DNA of 64,000 nt from Escherichia coli. Lineage in GTDB: Bacteria > Pseudomonadota > Gammaproteobacteria > Enterobacterales > Enterobacteriaceae. Positions within the stretch are counted from its first letter, which is position 1. Every line of letters begins with the position of its first letter. The notes beneath the pieces were generated by a model. The model was not told the origin of the DNA, searched no databases, and worked only from the letters and a program-made list of their open reading frames with translations. Position numbers and translations under genes: made by a program. The stretch is from assembly GCF_041886205.1 (NCBI RefSeq), contig NZ_CP169029.1, one strand, 5' to 3'. Positions 11,307 through 50,650 of this stretch are shown here, piece after piece.

Positions 11307-12254
11307 ATGCAAAATCGGCTGACCATCAAAGACATCGCACGCTTAAGCGGCGTGGGGAAATCTACAGTTTCCCGGGTGCTGAATAACGAAAGCGGCGTGA
11401 GCCAGCGCACCCGCGAGCGTGTTGAAGCAGTGATGAATCAGCATGGATTTTCCCCTTCCCGCTCTGCGCGCGCTATGCGTGGGCAAAGCGATAAAGTGGT
11501 CGCCATCATTGTTACCCGTCTGGATTCGTTGTCAGAAAATCTCGCCGTTCAAACCATGCTGCCAGCGTTCTATGAACAAGGTTACGACCCAATCATGATG
11601 GAAAGTCAGTTTTCCCCGCAATTAGTTGCCGAACATTTGGGGATCCTAAAACGGCGTAATATCGACGGCGTAGTGCTGTTCGGTTTTACCGGCATAACAG
11701 AAGAAATGTTAGCCCACTGGCAGTCATCGCTGGTTCTGCTGGCGCGTGACGCAAAAGGCTTTGCTTCGGTCTGTTATGACGACGAAGGGGCAATCAAGAT
11801 CCTGATGCAACGGCTCTATGACCAGGGGCATCGTAATATCAGTTATCTCGGCGTGCCGCACAGTGACGTGACGACCGGTAAGCGACGTCACGAAGCCTAC
11901 CTGGCGTTCTGCAAAGCGCATAAACTGCATCCCGTTGCCGCTCTGCCAGGGCTTGCTATGAAGCAAGGCTATGAGAACGTAGCAAAAGTGATTACGCCTG
12001 AAACTACCGCCTTACTGTGCGCAACCGACACGCTGGCACTTGGCGCAAGTAAATACCTGCAAGAGCAACGCATCGACACCTTGCAACTGGCGAGCGTCGG
12101 TAATACGCCGTTAATGAAATTCCTTCATCCGGAGATCGTCACCGTAGATCCTGGTTACGCCGAAGCTGGACGCCAGGCGGCCTGCCAATTGATCGCACAG
12201 GTAACCGGGCGCAGCGAACCGCAACAAATCATCATCCCCGCCACCCTGTCCTGA
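11307..12254 (+). CDS. treR: Trehalose operon repressor (LacI family)
   Basis: 315-aa ORF with N-terminal LacI-type HTH (TIKDIARLSGVGKSTVSRVLN). Confidence 0.95.
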   Translation: MQNRLTIKDIARLSGVGKSTVSRVLNNESGVSQRTRERVEAVMNQHGFSPSRSARAMRGQSDKVVAIIVTRLDSLSENLAVQTMLPAFYEQGYDPIMMESQFSPQLVAEHLGILKRRNIDGVVLFGFTGITEEMLAHWQSSLVLLARDAKGFASVCYDDEGAIKILMQRLYDQGHRNISYLGVPHSDVTTGKRRHEAYLAFCKAHKLHPVAALPGLAMKQGYENVAKVITPETTALLCATDTLALGASKYLQEQRIDTLQLASVGNTPLMKFLHPEIVTVDPGYAEAGRQAACQLIAQVTGRSEPQQIIIPATLS

Positions 12255-27531: not shown

Positions 27532-28488
27532 TCAATACCCCATATTTTTCTTCTTCTCTAACTCTTCTTTTGCGGTATCAGGCAGATAAAGGGTGGATTT
27601 GGTCAGCGTCAGCTTTTCAGGCATGGTGCCGTCTTTTTTGTATTTCTCCAGCGCGTCGAAGGCGGGACCTGCCATATTCGGCGTCAGTTCAACACTGGCG
27701 TTCGCTTCGCCATCAATCATCGCTTTGTAGATATCCGGTACGCCGTCGATAGAACCTGTCAGAATATCTTTGCCTGGTTTCAGGCCCGCTTCTTTAATTG
27801 CCTGAATTGCACCAATCACCATGTCGTCGTTATGGGCGTAAACCATGCAGATGTTTTTGCCGTTGTTTTCCGCTTTGATAAAGCTCTCCATGACTTCTTT
27901 GCCTTTACTGCGGGTGAAGTCACCTGACTGCGAGCGGATAATTTTGATATTTGGCGCATTCTTAATGGCTTCGGCAAAGCCTTTCTTACGGTCAATGGCG
28001 ACGCTGGCCCCAACAGTGCCCTGCAGCTCCACCACGTTGCATGGTTTGCCATTCACTTCTTTTACCAGCCAGTCACCAATCAACTTGCCTTCGAGAATGT
28101 TGTCGGCAGTGACGGTGGTCATATAGAGAGATTTGTCTTTCACATCAATAGAACGATCGAGCAAGAAGACCGGGATTTCGGCATCTTTCGCCTCTTTTAA
28201 TACCGGTTCCCAACCAGTCGCAACCACCGGAGCGATAAAGATCGCATCCACCCCTTGCGCGACGAAGGAACGTACCGCTTTAATCTGGTTTTCCTGCTTT
28301 TGCTGACCATCGGCAATTTTCAGCGTAATTCCGCGTTTTTCGGCCTCACTTTTCGCCACATTGGTTTCTGCGGCGCGCCAGCCAGATTCCGATCCGACCT
28401 GCGAAAATCCTACGGTTAATGGAGCGGCCAACGCCATAGACGACATGGCTGCCGAGACTGCAGAGACTACAAGTAAGCGTTTCCACAT
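27532..28488 (-). CDS. ytfQ: Galactofuranose-binding periplasmic protein YtfQ
   Basis: 318-aa ORF with signal peptide, K-12 synteny. Confidence 0.94.
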   Translation of the reverse strand: MWKRLLVVSAVSAAMSSMALAAPLTVGFSQVGSESGWRAAETNVAKSEAEKRGITLKIADGQQKQENQIKAVRSFVAQGVDAIFIAPVVATGWEPVLKEAKDAEIPVFLLDRSIDVKDKSLYMTTVTADNILEGKLIGDWLVKEVNGKPCNVVELQGTVGASVAIDRKKGFAEAIKNAPNIKIIRSQSGDFTRSKGKEVMESFIKAENNGKNICMVYAHNDDMVIGAIQAIKEAGLKPGKDILTGSIDGVPDIYKAMIDGEANASVELTPNMAGPAFDALEKYKKDGTMPEKLTLTKSTLYLPDTAKEELEKKKNMGY

Positions 28489-28797
28489 AGGGTTGTCCTC
28501 GTCGGGGTAATTATTATTGGTGAAAAGATGTTCGCGAAAAAACTATAGACAATTCGTTATGTAACGGATTGCGTTACATCACACTTCAAAGAAGTAAATA
28601 AAACGTTAATCACAAGTTTGTAATCGCTTTCATCTCACTATGAAAAATGCGGCTACGGTTATGGATTTTCCTGCTCTGTATACCGTCTTAAAATTGGCGA
28701 AAAAGGAAAATGAAGACGAAAACAAGCGAAGACATTCGGCGCGAGTTGGCTATAATACTCGGCACTTGTTTGCCACATATTTTTAAAGGAAACAGAC

Positions 28798-29329
28798 ATG
28801 AGCTTACTCAACGTCCCTGCGGGTAAAGATCTGCCGGAAGACATCTACGTTGTTATTGAGATCCCGGCTAACGCAGATCCGATCAAATACGAAATCGACA
28901 AAGAGAGCGGCGCACTGTTCGTTGACCGCTTCATGTCCACCGCGATGTTCTATCCGTGCAACTACGGTTACATCAACCACACCCTGTCTCTGGACGGTGG
29001 ACCCGGTTGACGTACTGGTCCCGACTCCGTACCCGCTGCAGCCGGGTTCTGTGATCCGTTGCCGTCCGGTTGGCGTTCTGAAAATGACCGACGAAGCCGG
29101 TGAAGATGCGAAACTGATTGCTGTTCCGCACACAAAGCTGAGCAAAGAATACGATCACATTAAAGACGTTAACGATCTGCCAGAGCTGCTGAAAGCGCAG
29201 ATCGCTCACTTCTTCGAGCACTACAAAGACCTCGAAAAAGGCAAGTGGGTGAAAGTTGAAGGTTGGGAAAACGCAGAAGCCGCTAAAGCTGAAATCGTTG
29301 CCTCCTTCGAGCGCGCAAAGAATAAATAA
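28798..29329 (+). pseudogene. ppa: Inorganic pyrophosphatase, reading frame broken by an apparent +1 insertion near 28999
   Basis: Track ORFs 28798..29010 and 28850..29329 are the N- and C-terminal halves of Ppa in different frames; span is 532 nt = 531 + 1. Extra G read in ...ctggacggtgGacccggtt. Confidence 0.9.
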
Positions 29330-29344
29330 GTTCTTATAGCGCAA

Positions 29345-29386
29345 TAACCCTGAACACCGGGCTTCGGTTAGTAAGGGTTTTTTTAT
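29345..29386 (+). terminator. Probable ppa terminator
   Basis: GC-rich imperfect hairpin followed by a T7 run downstream of the ppa stop. Confidence 0.4.
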
Positions 29387-29405
29387 GCCCGCGATAAATA
29401 AACAC

Positions 29406-29758
29406 TTATTCCACCACCGCCTGCAAGCGTAATAACGCCTCTTCCACCACCTCATCCGCAGCCAGACCAATACGCTTTGCCAGCCGGGCGCGTAGATCCA
29501 TCATCCGCACCTGATTAACCAGCACCACGCCGTGCACATCGCCTTCTTCGCAATGTAAAGGAACGCTAAATCCGGCATAACGGGCAAAATTTCCACACCC
29601 TGCGTAATGGGGGCCACCAGCGTCATTCCCAGTTGATTAAAGGCTTGAACGGAGAGCACAAGCGCAGGTCGACCAGCACCTTGCTGTTCATGGCCGCTTG
29701 CTGGATCAAAGCCAACCAGCACAATGTCTCCCCGTTCAAATTCACTTTTCTTTACCAT
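29406..29758 (-). pseudogene. chpB: ChpB (MazF-like) toxin, frame broken by an apparent 2-bp tandem duplication near 29585-29588
   Basis: Track ORF 29501..29758 matches ChpB through ...VAPITQG, then diverges; the remaining ChpB sequence continues in another frame to a stop near 29406. Confidence 0.85.
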
Positions 29759-30003
29759 ATTTCGTCACCCGCAGGGGTGGATTTACCCCAGACATCCTGC
29801 TCGCTAAGTTCCGCGGCGTTCATGTCACACTGTGCCAGCAGTTCATCAAGCGAGTAGCGCCTGGAGATGGGTGTCAGAATCAGTTGGTTGTTGCTCACCT
29901 GCGCTTCCACGCTCTGCCCCGGCTGTAAGTTAAGTTCTTTCATTACGATATTGGGAATGACCATACCTGCACTGTTCCCCCATCTTTTTATGGTAATACG
30001 CAT
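29752..30003 (-). CDS. chpS: ChpS antitoxin (MazE-like)
   Basis: 83 aa from the internal Met (MRITIKRWGNSAGMVIPNIVMKELNL...); appears intact. Confidence 0.9.
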   Translation of the reverse strand: MRITIKRWGNSAGMVIPNIVMKELNLQPGQSVEAQVSNNQLILTPISRRYSLDELLAQCDMNAAELSEQDVWGKSTPAGDEIW

Positions 30004-30017
30004 CTGCACCTCCTTAA

Positions 30018-30034
30018 GTTATACAAAGTATAAC
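30018..30034. promoter_or_regulatory. Palindrome upstream of chpS, candidate autoregulatory operator
   Basis: Perfect inverted repeat gttatacAAAgtataac just upstream of the chpS start. Confidence 0.4.
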
Positions 30035-30175
30035 TCACGGTGCTACAGGAAACGTTTTACCCCTGCGCATTTGTGAATGCCAGCAGAGTTTTTTATGCGT
30101 TAATAGATATGGAAAGCGGCTCGGAGAGAAAAGCAAAAGGTGAGGGAATTACAAAACAGAATGCGAGTCGTCTCG

Positions 30176-30218
30176 CAAAAAACAACGCCACCCGCGAAGG
30201 TGGCGTGCTTTTATTATT
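30176..30218. terminator. Hairpin with flanking A/T runs downstream of ytfP, probable bidirectional terminator
   Basis: cgccaccc-gcgaa-ggtggcg stem-loop with an A-run on one side and a T-rich run on the other. Confidence 0.55.
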
Positions 30219-30558
30219 ACTTATCCCTGTCTAACCAGTCGCCGCTTTCAATTAGCTTTAATCCATCGACGGGTCGTTGATAAACGTACATCCATGCACT
30301 CCCGTACGGCGTCTGAATCAACTGGCGCGCGTATTCACCGCCCCTGGTGCGCAAGGCATCAAGTTCGGCCAGCGTGGCGTTGTCAATACGATAAACTTCA
30401 CCGTGTACTGTTCCGTTCCCCGGAACTGCGCCTGGATAGTGGCCCAGGCTATACAACTGGTAGTTATCGATACTGAAATCGCCCAGTAACTGGGCATTGG
30501 TCATCCAGTGACTGTTGCCTTGTTTGTGGCGTAAACTGCCGTAGACAAATATTCGCAT
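30217..30558 (-). CDS. ytfP: Gamma-glutamylcyclotransferase-family protein YtfP
   Basis: 113-aa ORF, intact, K-12 synteny. Confidence 0.92.
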   Translation of the reverse strand: MRIFVYGSLRHKQGNSHWMTNAQLLGDFSIDNYQLYSLGHYPGAVPGNGTVHGEVYRIDNATLAELDALRTRGGEYARQLIQTPYGSAWMYVYQRPVDGLKLIESGDWLDRDK

Positions 30559-30560
30559 TG

Positions 30561-36126
<5,566 letters not shown>

Positions 36127-36289
36127 TTAAACGGCTTAACAAAAATCCAGTAATATGGATTAAAAAGCAGACTAAACCCCAAATATTTCTTATGTTTTAC
36201 TTTAGACCTATTCACGGTGGTTATTGTGTGCAAATACGCCTCTTGTTACAACCTTAACCCCAATGACCGATTTTCGGGAGAGCGACACC

Positions 36290-36931
36290 ATGAGTTTATT
36301 TGATAAAAAGCATCTGGTTTCCCCCGCCGATGCCCTGCCTGGACGTAACACCCCGATGCCCGTAGCCACGCTGCATGCGGTCAACGGTCACTCAATGACC
36401 AATGTACCTGACGGAATGGAGATTGCCATTTTTGCGATGGGTTGTTTCTGGGGTGTGGAGCGTCTGTTCTGGCAGTTACCCGGCGTTTACAGCACCGCCG
36501 CAGGCTATACCGGCGGCTATACGCCAAAAAATCCGACTTATCGGGAAGTGTGCTCCGGTGATACGGGTCATGCCGAAGCGGTACGCATTGTTTACGATCC
36601 TTCCGTCATCAGCTATGAGCAGTTGCTACAGGTATTTTGGGAGAATCACGATCCCGCCCAGGGAATGCGTCAGGGCAATGACCACGGCACGCAGTATCGT
36701 TCAGCGATTTATCCGCTGACCCCAGAACAGGATGCCGCAGCTCGCGCCAGTCTGGAACGTTTTCAGGCGGCGATGCTTGCCGCCGATGACGATCGTCGCA
36801 TCACCACGGAAATCGCTAACGCCACACCGTTTTATTATGCCGAAGATGACCACCAGCAATATCTGCATAAAAACCCGTATGGTTACTGTGGAATTGGCGG
36901 AATTGGCGTCTGTCTGCCGCCGGAAGCATAG
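36290..36931 (+). CDS. msrA: Peptide methionine sulfoxide reductase A
   Basis: GCFWG active-site motif; open throughout. 213 codons here versus 212 aa remembered for K-12, possibly an in-frame 3-bp A-run expansion near 36526-36531. Confidence 0.92.
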
Positions 36932-36977
36932 CGTTACGGGTACAAATGTAGATTGTCGATAAAGTGCTATTTGTCTA

Positions 36978-37078
36978 TGCCGGATGCGGCGTAAACGCCT
37001 TACCAGGCCTACAAAATCGTCCAAATTCAATATATTGCATGGACTGCGTAGGCGGCCTGATCGGCATAGCGCATCAGG
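36978..37078. repeat. REP/BIME palindromic repeat cluster
   Basis: gccggatgcggcgtaaacgcctta(t)ccaggcctac-like units between msrA and ytfL. Confidence 0.65.
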
Positions 37079-37256
37079 CAGTTTTGCATTTATTAGCAGC
37101 CTGAATTTTAACCCTCTGGCGGCTTTACAGTACCTTACGCTATACTAGCCACTGAAAATGCCGGTTCACTTTCTTCGAATCGGCTTTCAATGTGTATTTC
37201 ACACAAATTAATCAACTTCCCCTTCCGAGGATCTGGCCTGAAAGGTCGGATAAGAT

Positions 37257-38603
37257 ATGTTAAACAGTATTTTAGTCATACTCTGCTTGATCGCTGTAAG
37301 TGCGTTCTTCTCGATGTCCGAGATCTCACTTGCCGCCTCACGCAAAATCAAACTTAAACTGCTGGCTGATGAAGGCAATATAAATGCCCAACGCGTTCTG
37401 AATATGCAGGAAAATCCCGGCATGTTCTTTACCGTGGTCCAAATCGGTCTGAACGCAGTGGCGATTCTCGGCGGTATCGTCGGTGATGCGGCATTTTCTC
37501 CAGCTTTTCACAGCCTGTTCTCCCGCTATATGTCGGCAGAGCTCTCTGAGCAACTGAGCTTTATTCTCTCTTTCTCGTGTTAGTGACTGGCATGTTTATC
37601 CTGTTTGCGGATTTAACCCCGAAACGCATCGGTATGATTGCGCCAGAAGCTGTGGCTTTGCGTATCATCAACCCGATGCGCTTCTGCCTGTACGTTTGCA
37701 CCCCGCTGGTGTGGTTCTTCAACGGCCTGGCGAACATGATCTTCCGTATTTTCAAACTGCCAATGGTACGTAAAGATGACATCACTTCTGATGACATCTA
37801 CGCGGTAGTGGAAGCCGGTGCGCTGGCGGGCGTGTTACGTAAACAGGAACACGAGCTGATTGAAAACGTCTTTGAGCTGGAATCCCGAACCGTTCCGTCT
37901 TCAATGACACCGCGTGAAAACGTGATTTGGTTTGATCTCCACGAAGATGAGCAAAGTCTGAAGAATAAGGTGGCGGAACATCCGCACTCTAAGTTCCTCG
38001 TCTGTAATGAAGATATTGACCACATCATCGGCTATGTCGATTCTAAAGACCTGCTGAACCGCGTGCTGGCTAACCAAAGCCTGGCACTGAACAGCGGCGT
38101 ACCAAATTCGCAACACGCTGATTGTGCCGGATACGTTAACCCTTTCAGAGGCGTTGGAAAGTTTTAAAACCGCAGGTGAAGACTTCGCGGTGATCATGAA
38201 CGAGTACGCGCTGGTGGTGGGGATCATCACCCTCAACGACGTGATGACCACGCTGATGGGCGATCTGGTCGGTCAGGGTCTGGAAGAGCAGATTGTCGCC
38301 CGTGATGAGAACTCATGGCTGATTGACGGCGGCACTCCGATTGACGACGTCATGCGCGTGCTGGATATTGACGAGTTCCCGCAGTCGGGCAACTACGAAA
38401 CCATCGGCGGCTTTATGATGTTTATGCTGCGTAAGATCCCGAAACGCACCGATTCGGTGAAATTCGCCGGCTACAAATTTGAAGTGGTGGATATCGATAA
38501 CTACCGCATCGACCAGCTGCTGGTGACCCGGATCGACAGCAAGGCCACCGCCCTTTCGCCAAAACTGCCTGACGCTAAAGATAAAGAAGAAAGCGTCGCG
38601 TAA
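37257..38603 (+). pseudogene. ytfL: CNNM/CorC-family membrane protein YtfL (DUF21 + CBS + CorC-HlyC), two apparent frameshifts
   Basis: Three track ORFs (37257..37583, 37577..38167, 38124..38603) tile the YtfL sequence; 2-bp dup near 37577-37580 and +1 C near 38102-38103. Confidence 0.87.
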
Positions 38604-38664
38604 CCCCCAGAAACATCAACGGCTCCTGAATCAGGAGCCGTCTTATTACTGCATAGCACTTTGG

Positions 38665-38871
38665 TTAAGCCATCTCTGTTTGCAGACGCATAACCTGACG
38701 GTTAACTTCGGACATCACTGACAAATGCAGCTTATCCTTCACTTTTGGGATAAGAATCTTACCCTTATCAAATTCAAAAGCGCCAACGTCCTTGATGTAT
38801 AACCGTCCACGGAACAGGATCTTTACGTACTTCGCCACCTGAAGTGGGTTGTACCGTTGGAAAATTTTCAT
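38665..38871 (-). CDS. ytfK: Small protein YtfK (DUF1107)
   Basis: 68 aa from the internal Met ([30 protein letters not shown]...), intact. Confidence 0.9.
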
Positions 38872-39198
38872 TGTTATCTCCTGCTGAGTATTACGCCTGT
38901 GCGGTGCCACAATCGGCCCAACTATTATGAGGCGCAAATTTTAATGCTTAGTGACTATAGACTATCCGGGCAATGTTTCCACCGCGTATAACTTTTTTTA
39001 CCTAAAGGTTACAATTATTCAGAATTATCTTTTTACCGAAGCGCGGTCTTCAGTATAAGCATTCATTTTTCATATGATTTGTGCGCTTGACCGCAAACTG
39101 GCATCACACTTGCGGGAAATTCGATAAATAGCACATATTATGATTAAAACTCAGACCCAAGTGGTCGGATCACCTGCATATCATAAGAAGGAAACACC

Positions 39199-39755
39199 AT
39201 GACCCTACGCAAGATTCTGGTACTCACCTGCCTGCTGTTGCCGATGATGGCTTCCGCACATCAGTTCGAAACCGGTCAGCGAGTGCCGCCGATTGGCATT
39301 ACCGATCGTGGCGAGTTGGTGCTTGATAAAGATCAGTTTAGCTACAAAACCTGGAACAGCGCGCAGTTAGTGGGAAAAGTGCGAGTACTGCAACATATTG
39401 CTGGTCGCACCTCTGCAAAAGAGAAAAACGCGACGCTGATTGAAGCGATTAAATCAGCGAAGTTACCGCACGATCGTTACCAGACCACCACCATTGTTAA
39501 CACCGACGACGCAATTCCGGGTTCCGGCATGTTTGTGCGCAGCAGTCTGGAGAGTAATAAAAAGCTTTATCCCTGGTCGCAGTTTATTGTCGATAGCAAT
39601 GGCGTCGCGCGCGGTGCCTGGCAGCTGGATGAAGAAAGTTCCGCTGTGTAGTGGTGCTGGATAAGGATGGTCGCGTGCAATGGGCCAAAGACGGGGCGCT
39701 CACTCAGGAAGAGGTGCAGCAAGTGATGGACCTGCTGCAAAAGTTGCTCAAATAA
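39199..39755 (+). pseudogene. ytfJ: Periplasmic protein YtfJ, truncated at residue 150 by an apparent 2-bp tandem duplication near 39645-39648
   Basis: Track ORF stops at 39651 after ...EESSAV; the rest of YtfJ (VVLDKDGRVQWAKDG...QKLLK) continues in the +2 frame to about 39755. Span is 557 nt = 555 + 2. Confidence 0.85.
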
Positions 39756-39817
39756 TGGCAACAACATAGAGTCTGCAAAAATAATATTCCCCTGTCGATA
39801 CCTATGGGATAGGGGAA

Positions 39818-40783
39818 TTAAGTGTATGAGTTCTTACGCCGAACTAATACTGGTAACGCTAGTTGCTCTTTTTTAAACGCCTCAATGGTAGATTTATATT
39901 TCTCGCAAATCTCCTCTTCGGTAATATCACTATCTACCGCCAGATTCGCACTTACTATCGCATCCACTTGTTCGGCTAATTCCACTTGTTGGCAACCTGC
40001 ATTAACCAGAAAATTATAAATAAGAGAGTAATCTTCATCCTCCAAAACAACAAAGGAACCATTACGAAAACGTTCATCCCCTCCATAGATTGTAAGTACA
40101 GAGCCCAAAGATTCTATGACTATGGCAAAATTATCATCAATTATTTTTTCGTAAATAAATATACCATCCATCGCATTCTTTAATTCCACCTCCTGGTATT
40201 TGGAGTTCAAATTTACCCCGTTTTAATTTGCTTACTATATCCTCCAATAAGGCATAACCTAAAGACACGTCACCAAACGCCTGGCGAATATAACCTTTAA
40301 TCCTTTTCGGTATGTCAGACTGTTTTTTCGGTATGTCAGACTGTTTTTTCTGTAAAATATCCCAGGCATACAATCTTCTGTTTTGTTCTAACGGAAACTC
40401 GCGGTTTTTGAAATCCATGAATGAGTTATACTCATTTATTGTTATGGGAATTTCTTCGTATTCAAACCCACTGCCTCGCAATGTCATTGTATATTCGGCA
40501 CCGTTATCTTTAAGGCTGAAACTGATAAGAAACTTATCCATGGCGTTAACAGTTTCATTTTTTGATGAAAGTACCTGATAACTATTTTTATCAATCTGAG
40601 TTGCGCAACGAAAGAACTCCCTCAAAGTTAAGAGGCTATCATAATTCGAAACCCAATCTTTTTCCCTCCTAAATGCATGCTGAATATTATTAAAAAATTG
40701 TTTGAATGTGTTTTTGTATGCGATGATTTTACAAATAACTCCACCGCACCAATAAAATTATTGTGTCTGATCCTGGGTAACAT
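39818..40783 (-). pseudogene. ytfI: AT-rich uncharacterized protein YtfI, split into at least two or three frames
   Basis: Track ORFs 39818..40210 and 40137..40625 overlap in different frames; an in-frame ATG further upstream (about 40781-40783) opens a third frame that runs into a stop near 40630. Confidence 0.7.
40304..40345. repeat. Perfect 21-bp tandem duplication inside ytfI
   Basis: ttttcggtatgtcagactgtt occurs twice head-to-tail, encoding the repeated heptapeptide KKQSDIP. Confidence 0.8.
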
Positions 40784-40994
40784 ATGGCCACCTTATTTTA
40801 TTTGGTTATTTTATGTCGCCATTAAATATCTCATTATAGAAGTAAACTATCAAAAAACGCTCATTATTAAAATGTAACTTATTAGCAATTGAATTTTTGC
40901 ACTTTAAATACAATCTCTTTTTATTTATAACTTTTTAGGTTGGGAGAAATCAGGATGGCAGAATCAGGAAATACACTGTTTCTGCCATCTGAAT

Positions 40995-41742
40995 TTAGTA
41001 AATAGACACTCTGAACCCCGGATTCAGGAACGACTCGCGCGGAGTGTAATCCAGCGGTTTACCCTGCCAGTCGTGAACGTGCGCTCCGGCAGCTGCAGCC
41101 ACAGCATGTCCAGCGGCGGTGTCCCAAATATTCGTTGGTCCGAAGCGCGGGTACAGCTGCGCCTGTCCTTCCGCCACCACCAGGCAGAATTTCAGCGAAG
41201 AGCCGATGGACGTGGTCTGATGTTCGCCAAGCTGTTGCAGATACTCTTTCAGCTCCGCATCTGCATGGGAACGGCTGATAACCACCAGCGGCGGGCGCGC
41301 ATCGCGGACCTGAATCTGCTTGCGCACACCGCACTCTTCTTTCCAGGCTTTACCTTCTGCCGCGCTGTACATTACGTTCATTACCGGCGCATACACCACA
41401 CCTAAAATCGGTTTGCCGTGATCGATGAGCGCAATGTTAACGGTGAATTCGCCATTACGTTTAATAAACTCTTTAGTACCATCCAGCGGGTCTACCAGCC
41501 AGTAACGCTGCCAGTGCTGACGGACTTCCCAACCGGGAGGATCTTCTTCAGAAAGGACCGGAATATCCGGTGTCAGCGTACGTAAACCGTCCATGATAAC
41601 GGTGTGTGCGGCAATATCCGCTGCCGTTACCGGAGAATTGTCCGCTTTGCTGACGACGTCCATCGGTTTCGCCCCGTCGTAGACCTACCTGCATAATGGC
41701 ATCGCCTGCATTCCGTGCAAGCTGGCATACTTGATCTAACAT
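40995..41742 (-). pseudogene. cysQ: 3'(2'),5'-bisphosphate nucleotidase CysQ, frame broken by an apparent 4-bp tandem duplication near 41683-41690
   Basis: Track ORF 41548..41742 matches CysQ through ...GDAIMQV then diverges; ORF 40995..41663 carries the rest ([20 protein letters not shown]...). Plus-strand acctacct reads as a doubled acct. Confidence 0.87.
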
Positions 41743-41922
41743 TTCTCCACCTCGTCTCTGTGAGCGGTGTTAACTTATTGTTTTACTTATACCCTATCGT
41801 TAATGAATGCGCCAACTGTGATAGTGTCATCATTTTCAAAGCGTAAAATTGTGGCATTCTTCACTGTTCTATAAGTAAGACGTTTATTCTCCCTTTTCTT
41901 TCGTATTCCCGATGATAAAAGG

Positions 41923-43882
41923 ATGTCCCTGATGATTAAGTTTAGCGCAACGCTCCTGGCCACGCTGATTGCCGCCAGTGTGAATGCAGCGACGGTCGAT
42001 CTGCGTATCATGGAAACCACTGATCTGCATAGCAACATGATGGATTTCGATTATTACAAAGACACCGCCACGGAAAAATTCGGACTGGTACGTACGGCAA
42101 GCCTGATTAACGATGCCCGCAATGAAGTGAAAAACAGCGTACTGGTCGATAACGGCGATTTGATTCAGGGGAGTCCACTGGCCGATTACATGTCGGCGGC
42201 GAAAGGATTAAAAGCAGGTGATGTTCATCCGGTTTATAAGGCGCTGAATACGCTGGATTACACGGTCGGTACACTCGGCAATCATGAATTTAACTACGGT
42301 CTGGATTACCTGAAAAATGCGCTGGCGGGAGCGAAATTCCCTTATGTAAATGCCAACGTCATTGACGCCAGAACCAAACAGCCAATGTTTACACCGTATT
42401 TAATTAAAGATACCGAAGTGGTCGATAAAGACGGAAAAAAACAGACGCTGAAGATTGGCTATATTGGCGTCGTGCCGCCGCAAATCATGGGCTGGGATAA
42501 AGCTAATTTATCCGGAAAAGTGACGGTGAATGATATTACCGAAACCGTGCGCAAATACGTGCCTGAAATGCGCGAGAAAGGTACCGATGTCGTTGTCGTT
42601 CTGGCGCATTCCGGGCTATCTGCCGATCCGTATAAAGTGATGGCGGAAAACTCAGTTTATTACCTCAGTGAAATTCCTGGCGTTAACGCCATTATGTTTG
42701 GCCATATGCTCACGCCGTTTTCCCAGGTAAAGATTTTGCTGATATCGAAGGGGCTGATATCGCGAAAGGCACGCTGAATGGTGTTCCGGCGGTAATGCCG
42801 GGCATGTGGGGCGATCATCTTGGGGTGGTCGACTTACAACTCAGTAATAACAGCGGTAAATGGCAGGTGACGCAGGCGAAAGCGGAAGCACGGCCGATTT
42901 ACGACATCGCCAATAAAAAATCCCTCGCGGCGGAAGACAGCAAGCTGGTAGAAACACTCAAAGCCGATCACGATGCCACACGCCAGTTCGTCAGCAAGCC
43001 AATCGGTAAATCCGCCGACAATATGTATAGCTATCTGGCGCTGGTGCAGGACGATCCGACCGTGCAGGTGGTGAACAACGCGCAAAAAGCGTATGTCGAG
43101 CATTACATTCAGGGCGATCCGGATCTGGCAAAACTGCCGGTGCTTTCAGCTGCTGCACCGTTTAAAGTTGGTGGTCGCAAAAATGATCCGGCAAGCTATG
43201 TGGAGGTGGAAAAAAGGCCAGTTGACCTTCCGTAATGCCGACGATCTTTATCTCTACCCCAATACGCTGATTGTGGTGAAAGCCAGCGGTAAAGAGGTGA
43301 AAGAGTAGCTGGAGTGCTCCGCCGGACAGTTTAACCAGATTGATCCTGACAACACGAAACCACAGTCACTCATCAACTGGGATGGTTTCCGCACCTATAA
43401 CTTTGATGTGATTGATGGTGTGAATTATCAGATTGATGTTACCCAGCCTGCCCGTTATGACGGCGAGTGCCAGATGGTTAATGCCAATGCGGAAAGGATT
43501 AAGAACCTGACCTTTAATGGCAAGCCGATTGATCCGAACGCCATGTTCCTGGTTGCCACCAATAACTATCGCGCTTACGGCGGCAAATTTGCCGGTACGG
43601 GCGACAGCCATATCGCTTTTGCTTCACCGGATGAGAACCGCTCGGTGCTGGCAGCGTGGATTGCTGATGAGTCGAAACGTGCGGGGGAAATTCACCCGGC
43701 GGCAGATAACAACTGGCGTTTTAGCACCGATAGCTGGCGATAAGAAACTGGATATCCGTTTCGAAACCTCTCCATCAGATAAAGCCGCGGCGTTTATTAA
43801 AGAGAAAGGGCAATATCCGATGAATAAAGTCGCGACCGATGATATCGGGTTTGCGATTTATCAGGTGGATTTGAGTAAGTAA
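41923..43882 (+). pseudogene. cpdB: 2',3'-cyclic-nucleotide 2'-phosphodiesterase / 3'-nucleotidase CpdB, four disruptions
   Basis: Fragments 41923..42777, 42795..43235, 43093..43308, 43408..43743 and 43517..43882. Apparent 2-bp dup near 42704-42707, +1 A near 43210-43215, in-frame TAG at 43306-43308 where Trp is expected, +1 T near 43729-43732. Confidence 0.87.
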
Positions 43883-43909
43883 TACACTTCTTTTTCGGCC
43901 TATAAATCA

Positions 43910-44000
43910 TCAACCGCATCCGGCACTTTTGTCGGATGCGATGCTGGCGCATCTTATCCGCCCTACAAGTCATGAACCGTAGGCCGGATAAGCGCAGCCG
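43910..44000. repeat. REP/BIME palindromic repeat cluster
   Basis: gcatccggc...gccggataagcg-type palindromes between cpdB and ytfH. Confidence 0.65.
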
Positions 44001-44004
44001 GCAG

Positions 44005-44385
44005 TTATGCCGCACGTTCATCCCGCACCGCCAACACCTCGGGCAAATTCAACTCAATCCAGTCCGCCAGTGCAGCAACCTTTTCGCTCACCTGCTCGCC
44101 CAGCGGCGTGAGGCTATATTCCACATGCGGCGGCACCACCGGATACGCGATACGGTTAAGAAAACCATCCTGTTCTAACGCCTGTAACGACTGCGCAAGC
44201 ATCTTTTCACTCACCCCACCGATTTTGCGCCGCAGGTCGCTAAAGCGATGAGTACCTTCGCGTAGCGCCACCAGAATCAACACCCCCCAACGGCTGGTGA
44301 CGTGTTTCAACACCTCGCGCGACGGGCACTGTTCCGCAAAGAGATTACCCTCTTTCAGTTGTTGTGACAGGCTAACCTGACTCAT
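44005..44385 (-). CDS. ytfH: HxlR-type HTH transcriptional regulator YtfH
   Basis: 126 aa from the internal Met (MSQVSLSQQLKEGNLFAEQCPSREVL...); divergent from ytfG. Confidence 0.9.
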   Translation of the reverse strand: MSQVSLSQQLKEGNLFAEQCPSREVLKHVTSRWGVLILVALREGTHRFSDLRRKIGGVSEKMLAQSLQALEQDGFLNRIAYPVVPPHVEYSLTPLGEQVSEKVAALADWIELNLPEVLAVRDERAA

Positions 44386-50469: not shown

Positions 50470-50650
50470 TACGTCTGGCTTCCAGTGCCTGGGGGGAAAC
50501 CATACTGATATGTTGACATCCTCCACGCCCTGAAGGACGTGGATCCCTGCTACGTTCAGGCTGTCGCCTGAATCATTTCGGTGGGTTCCTGCTTCAACGA
50601 GCGGCCTGACTGCACCATCTCTCCACAGGCAAGAACGGCGTGCCCCGCCG
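50470..50650 (-). ncRNA. Predicted omega-RNA (TnpB guide RNA) overlapping the tnpB 3' end and the adjacent IS end
   Basis: Inferred only from the known architecture of TnpB systems; structured hairpin-containing sequence lies just downstream of the tnpB stop. Confidence 0.25.

Follow-up and report, generated by a model that had tools for sequence, protein, structure and literature searches.

MsrA of E. coli (the P0A744 family, with the solved structures 1ff3 and 2gt3) is characterised by the GCFWG and NPTY motifs, a C-terminal pair of cysteines and a full-length PMSR domain. All of these are shared by the MsrA encoded in the 64,000-nucleotide stretch of E. coli DNA analysed here (the window), which differs from the solved protein by an extra lysine between Pro79 and Asn80 and by a natural His/Arg allele near residue 170. 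Short tandem gains of the kind that supplies this lysine codon are familiar from slippage at homopolymers and short repeats, e.g. in phase variation, at contingency loci and among sequencing errors, and the A run of msrA is indeed lengthened; however, slippage needs existing runs and changes them by one unit in either direction at random loci, whereas the window displays gains only, at sites set by distance. Reductive accumulation of pseudogenes as in Shigella likewise leaves many adjacent frameshifted genes with an IS element nearby, but such decay is scattered, rich in deletions, accompanied by substitutions and sparing of essential genes, unlike the 24 insertions against 3 substitutions found here in 15 kb.

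Two artificial sources of short insertions bear a closer resemblance. The long-read consensus tool Racon works by default in pieces of about 500 bp. In tools of this type the consensus of each piece of the backbone is built independently, the pieces are then spliced, and a few bases may be repeated at each splice. The pieces spliced by Racon do not overlap, and overlapping ones are said to improve accuracy (PMC5411768); chunk-wise consensus in general, including the stitching done by polishers and basecallers, shares with the window a division into ~500-bp pieces and errors that fall only at the joints, independently of sequence and genes (PMC5411768). It differs in that the spacing found here is exact in true-sequence coordinates, non-integer and particular to each segment, that only duplications occur and that the sequence between joints is flawless. 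Simulated or scripted spiking of indels shares the placement on unedited sequence, the roughly uniform sizes of 1-4 and the blindness to genes, essentiality and context; it leaves unexplained the mildly smooth course of sizes along each series and the meaning of the segment borders. Among these systems the lesion series of the window is most like scripted or chunk-stitching edits.

The gene and the lesion in it are placed as follows.

36290..36931, + strand: msrA CDS, 642 bp, 213 aa plus stop, ATG start at 36290, ORF open
36526..36531: AAA duplicated in tandem (3 bp) within msrA, event 11 of 24

A sequence-only reading of the window had noted a 213-residue MsrA in place of the 212 residues of K-12, with TPKNPTY instead of TPNPTY and six A at 36526-36531. 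The translation agrees, and msrA of both DH5alpha and strain wlxctx60 is 639 bp and encodes 212 aa; the AAA of the reference gene is AAAAAA in the window, and one additional Lys (between residues 79 and 80 numbered from Met1) is thereby read. Alignment with reference msrA, in which that reading would have been overturned by a reference TPKNPTY, finds this sequence in no reference MsrA (about 5,420 genomes, and the structures 2gt3 and 1ff3). Among about 5,425 complete E. coli genomes the best megablast match to the gene agrees in 638 of 641 columns, the sole difference being a 3-base gap, and a 70-base probe over the site recovered 0 genomes at >=99% identity, its best match being 67/70 among the 5,419 E. 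coli genomes with a match. The exact 213-aa protein is absent from the gene-position collection (exact-protein look-up), and a 39-mer over the site has no match in genome_contigs (species-representative genomes) or metagenome_contigs (JGI). The solved E. coli chains 2gt3 and 1ff3 read GGYTP-NPTY, one residue fewer than the window protein, and the bovine, human and other solved MsrA chains show a net one-residue deficit relative to it.

The protein is otherwise a regular member of its family: it scores 212.7 bits against PMSR (PF01625; cut-off 23.7 bits, E = 4e-63), residues 46-200 covering profile positions 2-152 of 153, and both the GCFWG catalytic motif at residues 51-55 and the C-terminal recycling cysteines are kept, identical to those of 2gt3 and 1ff3. 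The native GGYTP-NPTY spacing of the 212-aa E. coli protein is lost by the insertion of one residue. The extra Lys falls inside the conserved GGYTPNPTY, three residues before the Tyr of NPTY; the latter, Tyr82 in mature numbering, is the active-site residue that binds the substrate sulfoxide in the MsrA family. Two further differences in the gene are of another nature. At residue ~170 (36795-36800) the window and the top E. coli DNA matches have Arg (DDRR) versus His (DDRH) in the PDB chains, a natural allele with no relation to the lesion series, and the substitution at 36378 is a natural allele common to other strains.

The setting of the msrA lesion became visible by alignment, to K-12-type DNA and then to the nearest relative, NZ_AP045833.1, over window positions 11000-62314. 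In about 50 kb the window differs from this relative by 9 substitutions and, besides an IS insertion, by 24 indels. All of the indels are insertions in the window and exact tandem duplications of 1-4 bp, with 0 deletions among the 24 in this alignment, and all are located within 28999-43719 together with 3 of the 9 substitutions. The other ~35 kb of the alignment has no indel save the 1310-bp IS insertion; window positions 43720-64000 are free of indels apart from that IS, and for positions 1-12000 the alignment with strain FCI56 is one unbroken 12000:12000 piece at 99.6% identity with no net indels. With so low a divergence, ordinary decay cannot account for 24 indels, all of them gains, in 15 kb. 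The block and the remaining 23 events are:

28403..44226: gridded block, extrapolated extent, with borders near 28403, 30790, 31651, 33901, 38628 and 44226
28999..29000: duplication of G, ppa, frameshift at codon 68, stop at codon 71 of 176
29594..29597: duplication of CA, chpB, frameshift
30193..30196: duplication of CG, intergenic chpS/ytfP
32213..32216: duplication of TC, tamB
32774..32778: one C gained (CCCC to CCCCC), tamB
33338..33340: one C gained (CC to CCC), tamB
34426..34428: one G gained (GG to GGG), tamA
34950..34953: duplication of GA, tamA
35474..35479: duplication of GGA, tamA
35999..36006: duplication of CCTG, tamA
37051..37056: duplication of GGC, intergenic msrA/paeA, in a REP-like palindromic stretch
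37577..37580: duplication of GT, paeA (ytfL), frameshift at codon 107, stop at codon 109
38102..38103: duplication of C, paeA
39136..39141: duplication of TAT, intergenic ytfK/ytfJ
39645..39648: duplication of TG, ytfJ, frameshift at codon 149
40152..40159: duplication of TAAA, hypothetical gene, already a pseudogene in the nearest relative
40665..40670: duplication of CCT, hypothetical gene between ytfJ and cysQ
41174..41179: duplication of CCA, cysQ
41683..41690: duplication of ACCT, cysQ, frameshift at codon 19
42194..42199: duplication of CGG, cpdB
42704..42707: duplication of AT, cpdB, frameshift
43210..43215: one A gained (AAAAA to AAAAAA), cpdB
43719..43722: one T gained (TTT to TTTT), cpdB, last visible event

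The regularity of these events is best seen in de-inserted (ancestral) coordinates, in which it was measured on the unit starts. The unit starts form four arithmetic progressions, or trains, none of which deviates by more than ±1 bp; their periods are ~595.5 (3 events), 561 (3 events), 522.5 (8 events, msrA included) and 506.5 bp (10 events). Steps in the train of msrA are 523, 522, 522, 523, 522, 523 and 523 bp, i.e. they are precise to ~0.1-0.2% (±1 bp over some 520 bp), and the msrA event falls exactly on the 522.5-bp grid (residual 0 bp), which it shares with the tamA lesions on its left and with the intergenic and paeA lesions on the other side. That the lesion process of this block also yields in-frame changes, as the sequence-only reading had surmised, is upheld by this common grid of msrA and its neighbours. 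Spacing after insertion is less regular (524-527 versus 522-523 bp), which places the grid on the unedited sequence. The chance that 23 gaps within 14.7 kb should all be >=506 bp is ~1e-15, and 0 of 200,000 random placements came close. Neither one constant period nor a smooth chirp accounts for the series, the period being constant within a train and stepped between trains; an exact rounding-of-a-line fit to the unit starts of the 522.5-bp train does not quite succeed either, and jitter of ±0.5-1 bp is left.

Successive trains meet when extrapolated. The 561-bp train would end near 33890-33893 and the 522.5-bp train start at ~33894; the latter would end at ~38598 and the 506.5-bp train start at ~38601, so that successive ends coincide within 2-4 bp but not exactly. 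Each of the two double-length gaps (1088 and 1034 bp) is the sum of the period that precedes it and the period that follows it, and since the trains meet on extrapolation each of these gaps appears to hide a silent grid point. The 2020-bp gap corresponds to 595 + 861 + 561 bp, of which the 861 bp between the first two trains are event-free. From this layout we infer five adjoining segments of ~2382, 861, 2246, 4706 and 5572 bp, which would have been cut evenly into floor(L/500) = 4, 1, 4, 9 and 11 pieces, L being the segment length. The six borders of these putative segments share no motif and coincide with no gene borders.

In order along the four trains the duplication lengths are 1, 2, 2; 2, 1, 1; 1, 2, 3, 4, 3, 3, 2, 1; and 3, 2, 4, 3, 3, 4, 3, 2, 1, 1 bp, 54 bp in sum. 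Lengths of 1, 2 and 3 bp occur seven times each and 4 bp three times, so that events of 3 bases are not in excess over those of 1 or 2. Lengths at neighbouring joints mostly differ by <=1 and rise and fall within a train (permutation p = 0.027). At 14 of the 24 sites the tract in the window consists of exactly two copies of the unit and hence of one copy in the ancestor, with doublings such as CCTG to CCTGCCTG, GGC to GGCGGC and ACCT to ACCTACCT.

Neither local sequence nor gene content appears to have guided the events. A flanking motif was sought in 15 bases on each side of the 24 sites and none was found, all 30 positions having an information content close to 0, and the duplicated units do not differ from the background in base composition. 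Coding sequence holds 21 of the 24 events at a coding fraction of 86.7%, and the number of events per gene follows gene length (tamA 4, cpdB 4, tamB 3, paeA 2, cysQ 2, the hypothetical gene 2). Nine genes are frameshifted, the essential ppa among them. The agreement of the coding share with the coding fraction, the repeated hits per gene and the truncation of ppa thus give no sign of selection. chpS (252 bp), ytfP (342 bp) and ytfK (207 bp) are untouched because they are shorter than the period; msrA, the only gene of the block struck by a 3-bp event alone, is still open because the one grid point inside it happened to be given a 3-bp copy. The essentiality of ppa in E. coli is given in the passage of PMC9959109 that cites Chen et al. 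1990. Its loss counts against a living lineage, provided that the genome holds no second copy or suppressor elsewhere.

The sequence-only reading had named the msrA lesion a possible A-run expansion. This description stands insofar as the A run is longer by 3; the homopolymer slippage that it implies does not, since the ancestral run is only AAA, and a 3-bp tandem duplication of the bases at a grid point is the more apt description. Slippage was judged by a pre-existing run, typically of >=6-7 nt for mononucleotides; it is rejected on the 3 A of the ancestral msrA, on the single ancestral unit at the majority of sites and on the longer msrA tract being found in 0 of 5,419 genomes, where slippage would make it polymorphic. 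An independent natural polymorphism in msrA, whether through slippage of the A run or as a true length variant of MsrA, agrees with an in-frame change that keeps the ORF intact and a strong PMSR domain (E = 4e-63), but next to nothing can be allowed for it in view of an ancestral AAA, a grid residual of 0 bp, the 0/5,419 genomes and a position inside GGYTPNPTY. Natural pseudogenisation fares no better, with 0 deletions in 24 indels, a regular spacing of P ~1e-15 and a truncated ppa. A cellular machine that measures distance, i.e. a translocase-nuclease or faulty Okazaki-fragment maturation making staggered breaks every 500-600 bp that are filled in and re-ligated, would account for events gathered in one tract, as for a single processive run, and for the want of a sequence motif; fill-in of staggered cuts yields short exact tandem duplications, as in target-site duplications and templated insertions. 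Such a machine is nevertheless very unlikely: non-integer periods held to ±1 bp speak of arithmetic rather than stochastic stepping, the changes of period between segments exactly match L/floor(L/500), 24 events of break and repair have left no accompanying deletion or substitution, ppa would be knocked out in the cell concerned, and the msrA lesion occurs in 0 of about 5,420 genomes. To our knowledge E. coli has no efficient pathway of blunt end joining. A physical train of footprints, made in one pass of such a machine through nicks in both strands, staggered by 1-4 nt and later filled in and resealed, with a step length altered at pauses, on a molecule that need not come from a viable cell, is given a similarly small probability.

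Two explanations place the regularity in the handling of DNA or reads. Junction scars in engineered or synthesised DNA, with fragments of ~500-600 bp grouped into sub-assemblies of 0.9-5.6 kb, are suggested by the even division into pieces of >=500 bp, which may be likened to hierarchical DNA-synthesis design, and by exact tandem duplications of <=4 bp that recall duplicated cohesive ends. The window, however, carries no recoding, watermark or vector sequence, its backbone consists of natural alleles at 9 substitutions from a wild isolate, its scars are of 1 to 4 bp where any one cloning chemistry would leave scars of a single length, and the construct would inactivate the essential ppa; this origin is thus hardly credible. 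The main rival is a splice artefact left in a real assembly by a Racon-type tool for consensus building or polishing. It is in keeping with lesions found only at regular, motif-free joints (±1 bp) in a read-sized block, and a poorly covered 15-kb stretch might escape the later correction of splice errors. Fixed consensus windows, however, follow the coordinates of the draft, and a noisy draft would cause jitter of several bp per 500 bp, versus the <=1 bp observed in true-sequence coordinates; instead of one constant integer window there are four non-integer periods from 506.5 to 595.5, which suggest a division L/n. Deletions and mismatches would likewise be expected from faulty splicing, and none are seen; between joints the sequence is free of errors, the block having only 3 substitutions, of which at least that at 36378 in msrA is natural. 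A full-text literature search found no report of artefacts at Racon window boundaries. On balance the splice artefact is unlikely, though it merits more weight than the other rivals.

Non-integer periods held to ±1 bp, steps of L/floor(L/500), gains only, flawless sequence between joints, placement in ancestral coordinates, the want of motif and selection and the broken ppa together point to arithmetic on a finished sequence. The lesion series is probably of non-biological, in-silico origin, either a scripted edit on a computed grid or an error of chunking and rejoining. An ordinary E. coli sequence of ~15.8 kb would have been handled as five adjoining segments, each split evenly into floor(L/500) pieces, and at the internal joints 1-4 local bases would have been written twice while the segment borders were left untouched. 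This may have come about by cutting a finished sequence into equal chunks and re-concatenating them with a few overlapping bases, or by a script or simulation that placed the lesions on a computed grid. No named tool is known to us that would both split segments into equal pieces of >=500 bp and repeat 1-4 bases where these pieces join. The smooth changes of length along the trains (p = 0.027) are not predicted by a plain uniform random draw and are unexplained. The added Lys of MsrA is best explained not as a cellular mutation but as one joint of this ruler-based edit.

The msrA lesion provides no evidence for a new MsrA variant or for a new mutational process, and whether MsrA(+Lys) is active ceases to matter if the change is absent from real DNA. 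For quality control the record contains a 15-kb stretch with 24 probably non-natural lesions and nine broken genes. The earlier caution that ORF-length checks overlook in-frame lesions holds for msrA, whose reading frame is open, and such checks also miss the three intergenic events at 30193, 37051 and 39136. Pseudogene calls, an "MsrA +Lys" allele and inferences of lost function in ppa, tamAB, paeA, cysQ and cpdB taken from this record would then be wrong. The signature is easily screened for in other sequences: indels that are gains only, each an exact tandem copy of 1-4 bp, set L/floor(L/500) apart and lacking any motif.

Further features of the window were noted beside the lesion series. 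The ~1.25-kb segment between ytfJ and cysQ (~39760-40990) is absent in K-12 and present in wlxctx60, and two of the grid duplications are located inside it; its hypothetical gene is annotated as frameshifted already in wlxctx60. cpdB (41932-43882) is an annotated pseudogene with an internal stop in this nearest relative. Positions 1591-2555 share only ~86% identity with wlxctx60, against 97.8-99.2% in the flanks; they lie within or close to a "DNA-binding protein" gene, itself frameshifted in wlxctx60, and look in sequence like a natural recombination or hypervariable patch. The 1310-bp insertion at 52984-54293 is an IS3-family element with terminal repeats TGAACCGCCCCGGG...CCCGGGGCGGTTCA, IS629/IS1203-like, and a 4-bp target duplication GTTG; its site is empty in K-12 and in the nearest relative, and a match spanning the two junctions together occurs in no complete E. 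coli genome. At ~50500-52200 a TetR/AcrR gene is interrupted by a remnant of an IS200/IS605 element (IS609-like) whose tnpB (RNA-guided endonuclease InsQ/TnpB) is intact and whose tnpA is truncated; since this remnant is also found in K-12 and wlxctx60 it is an old insertion.
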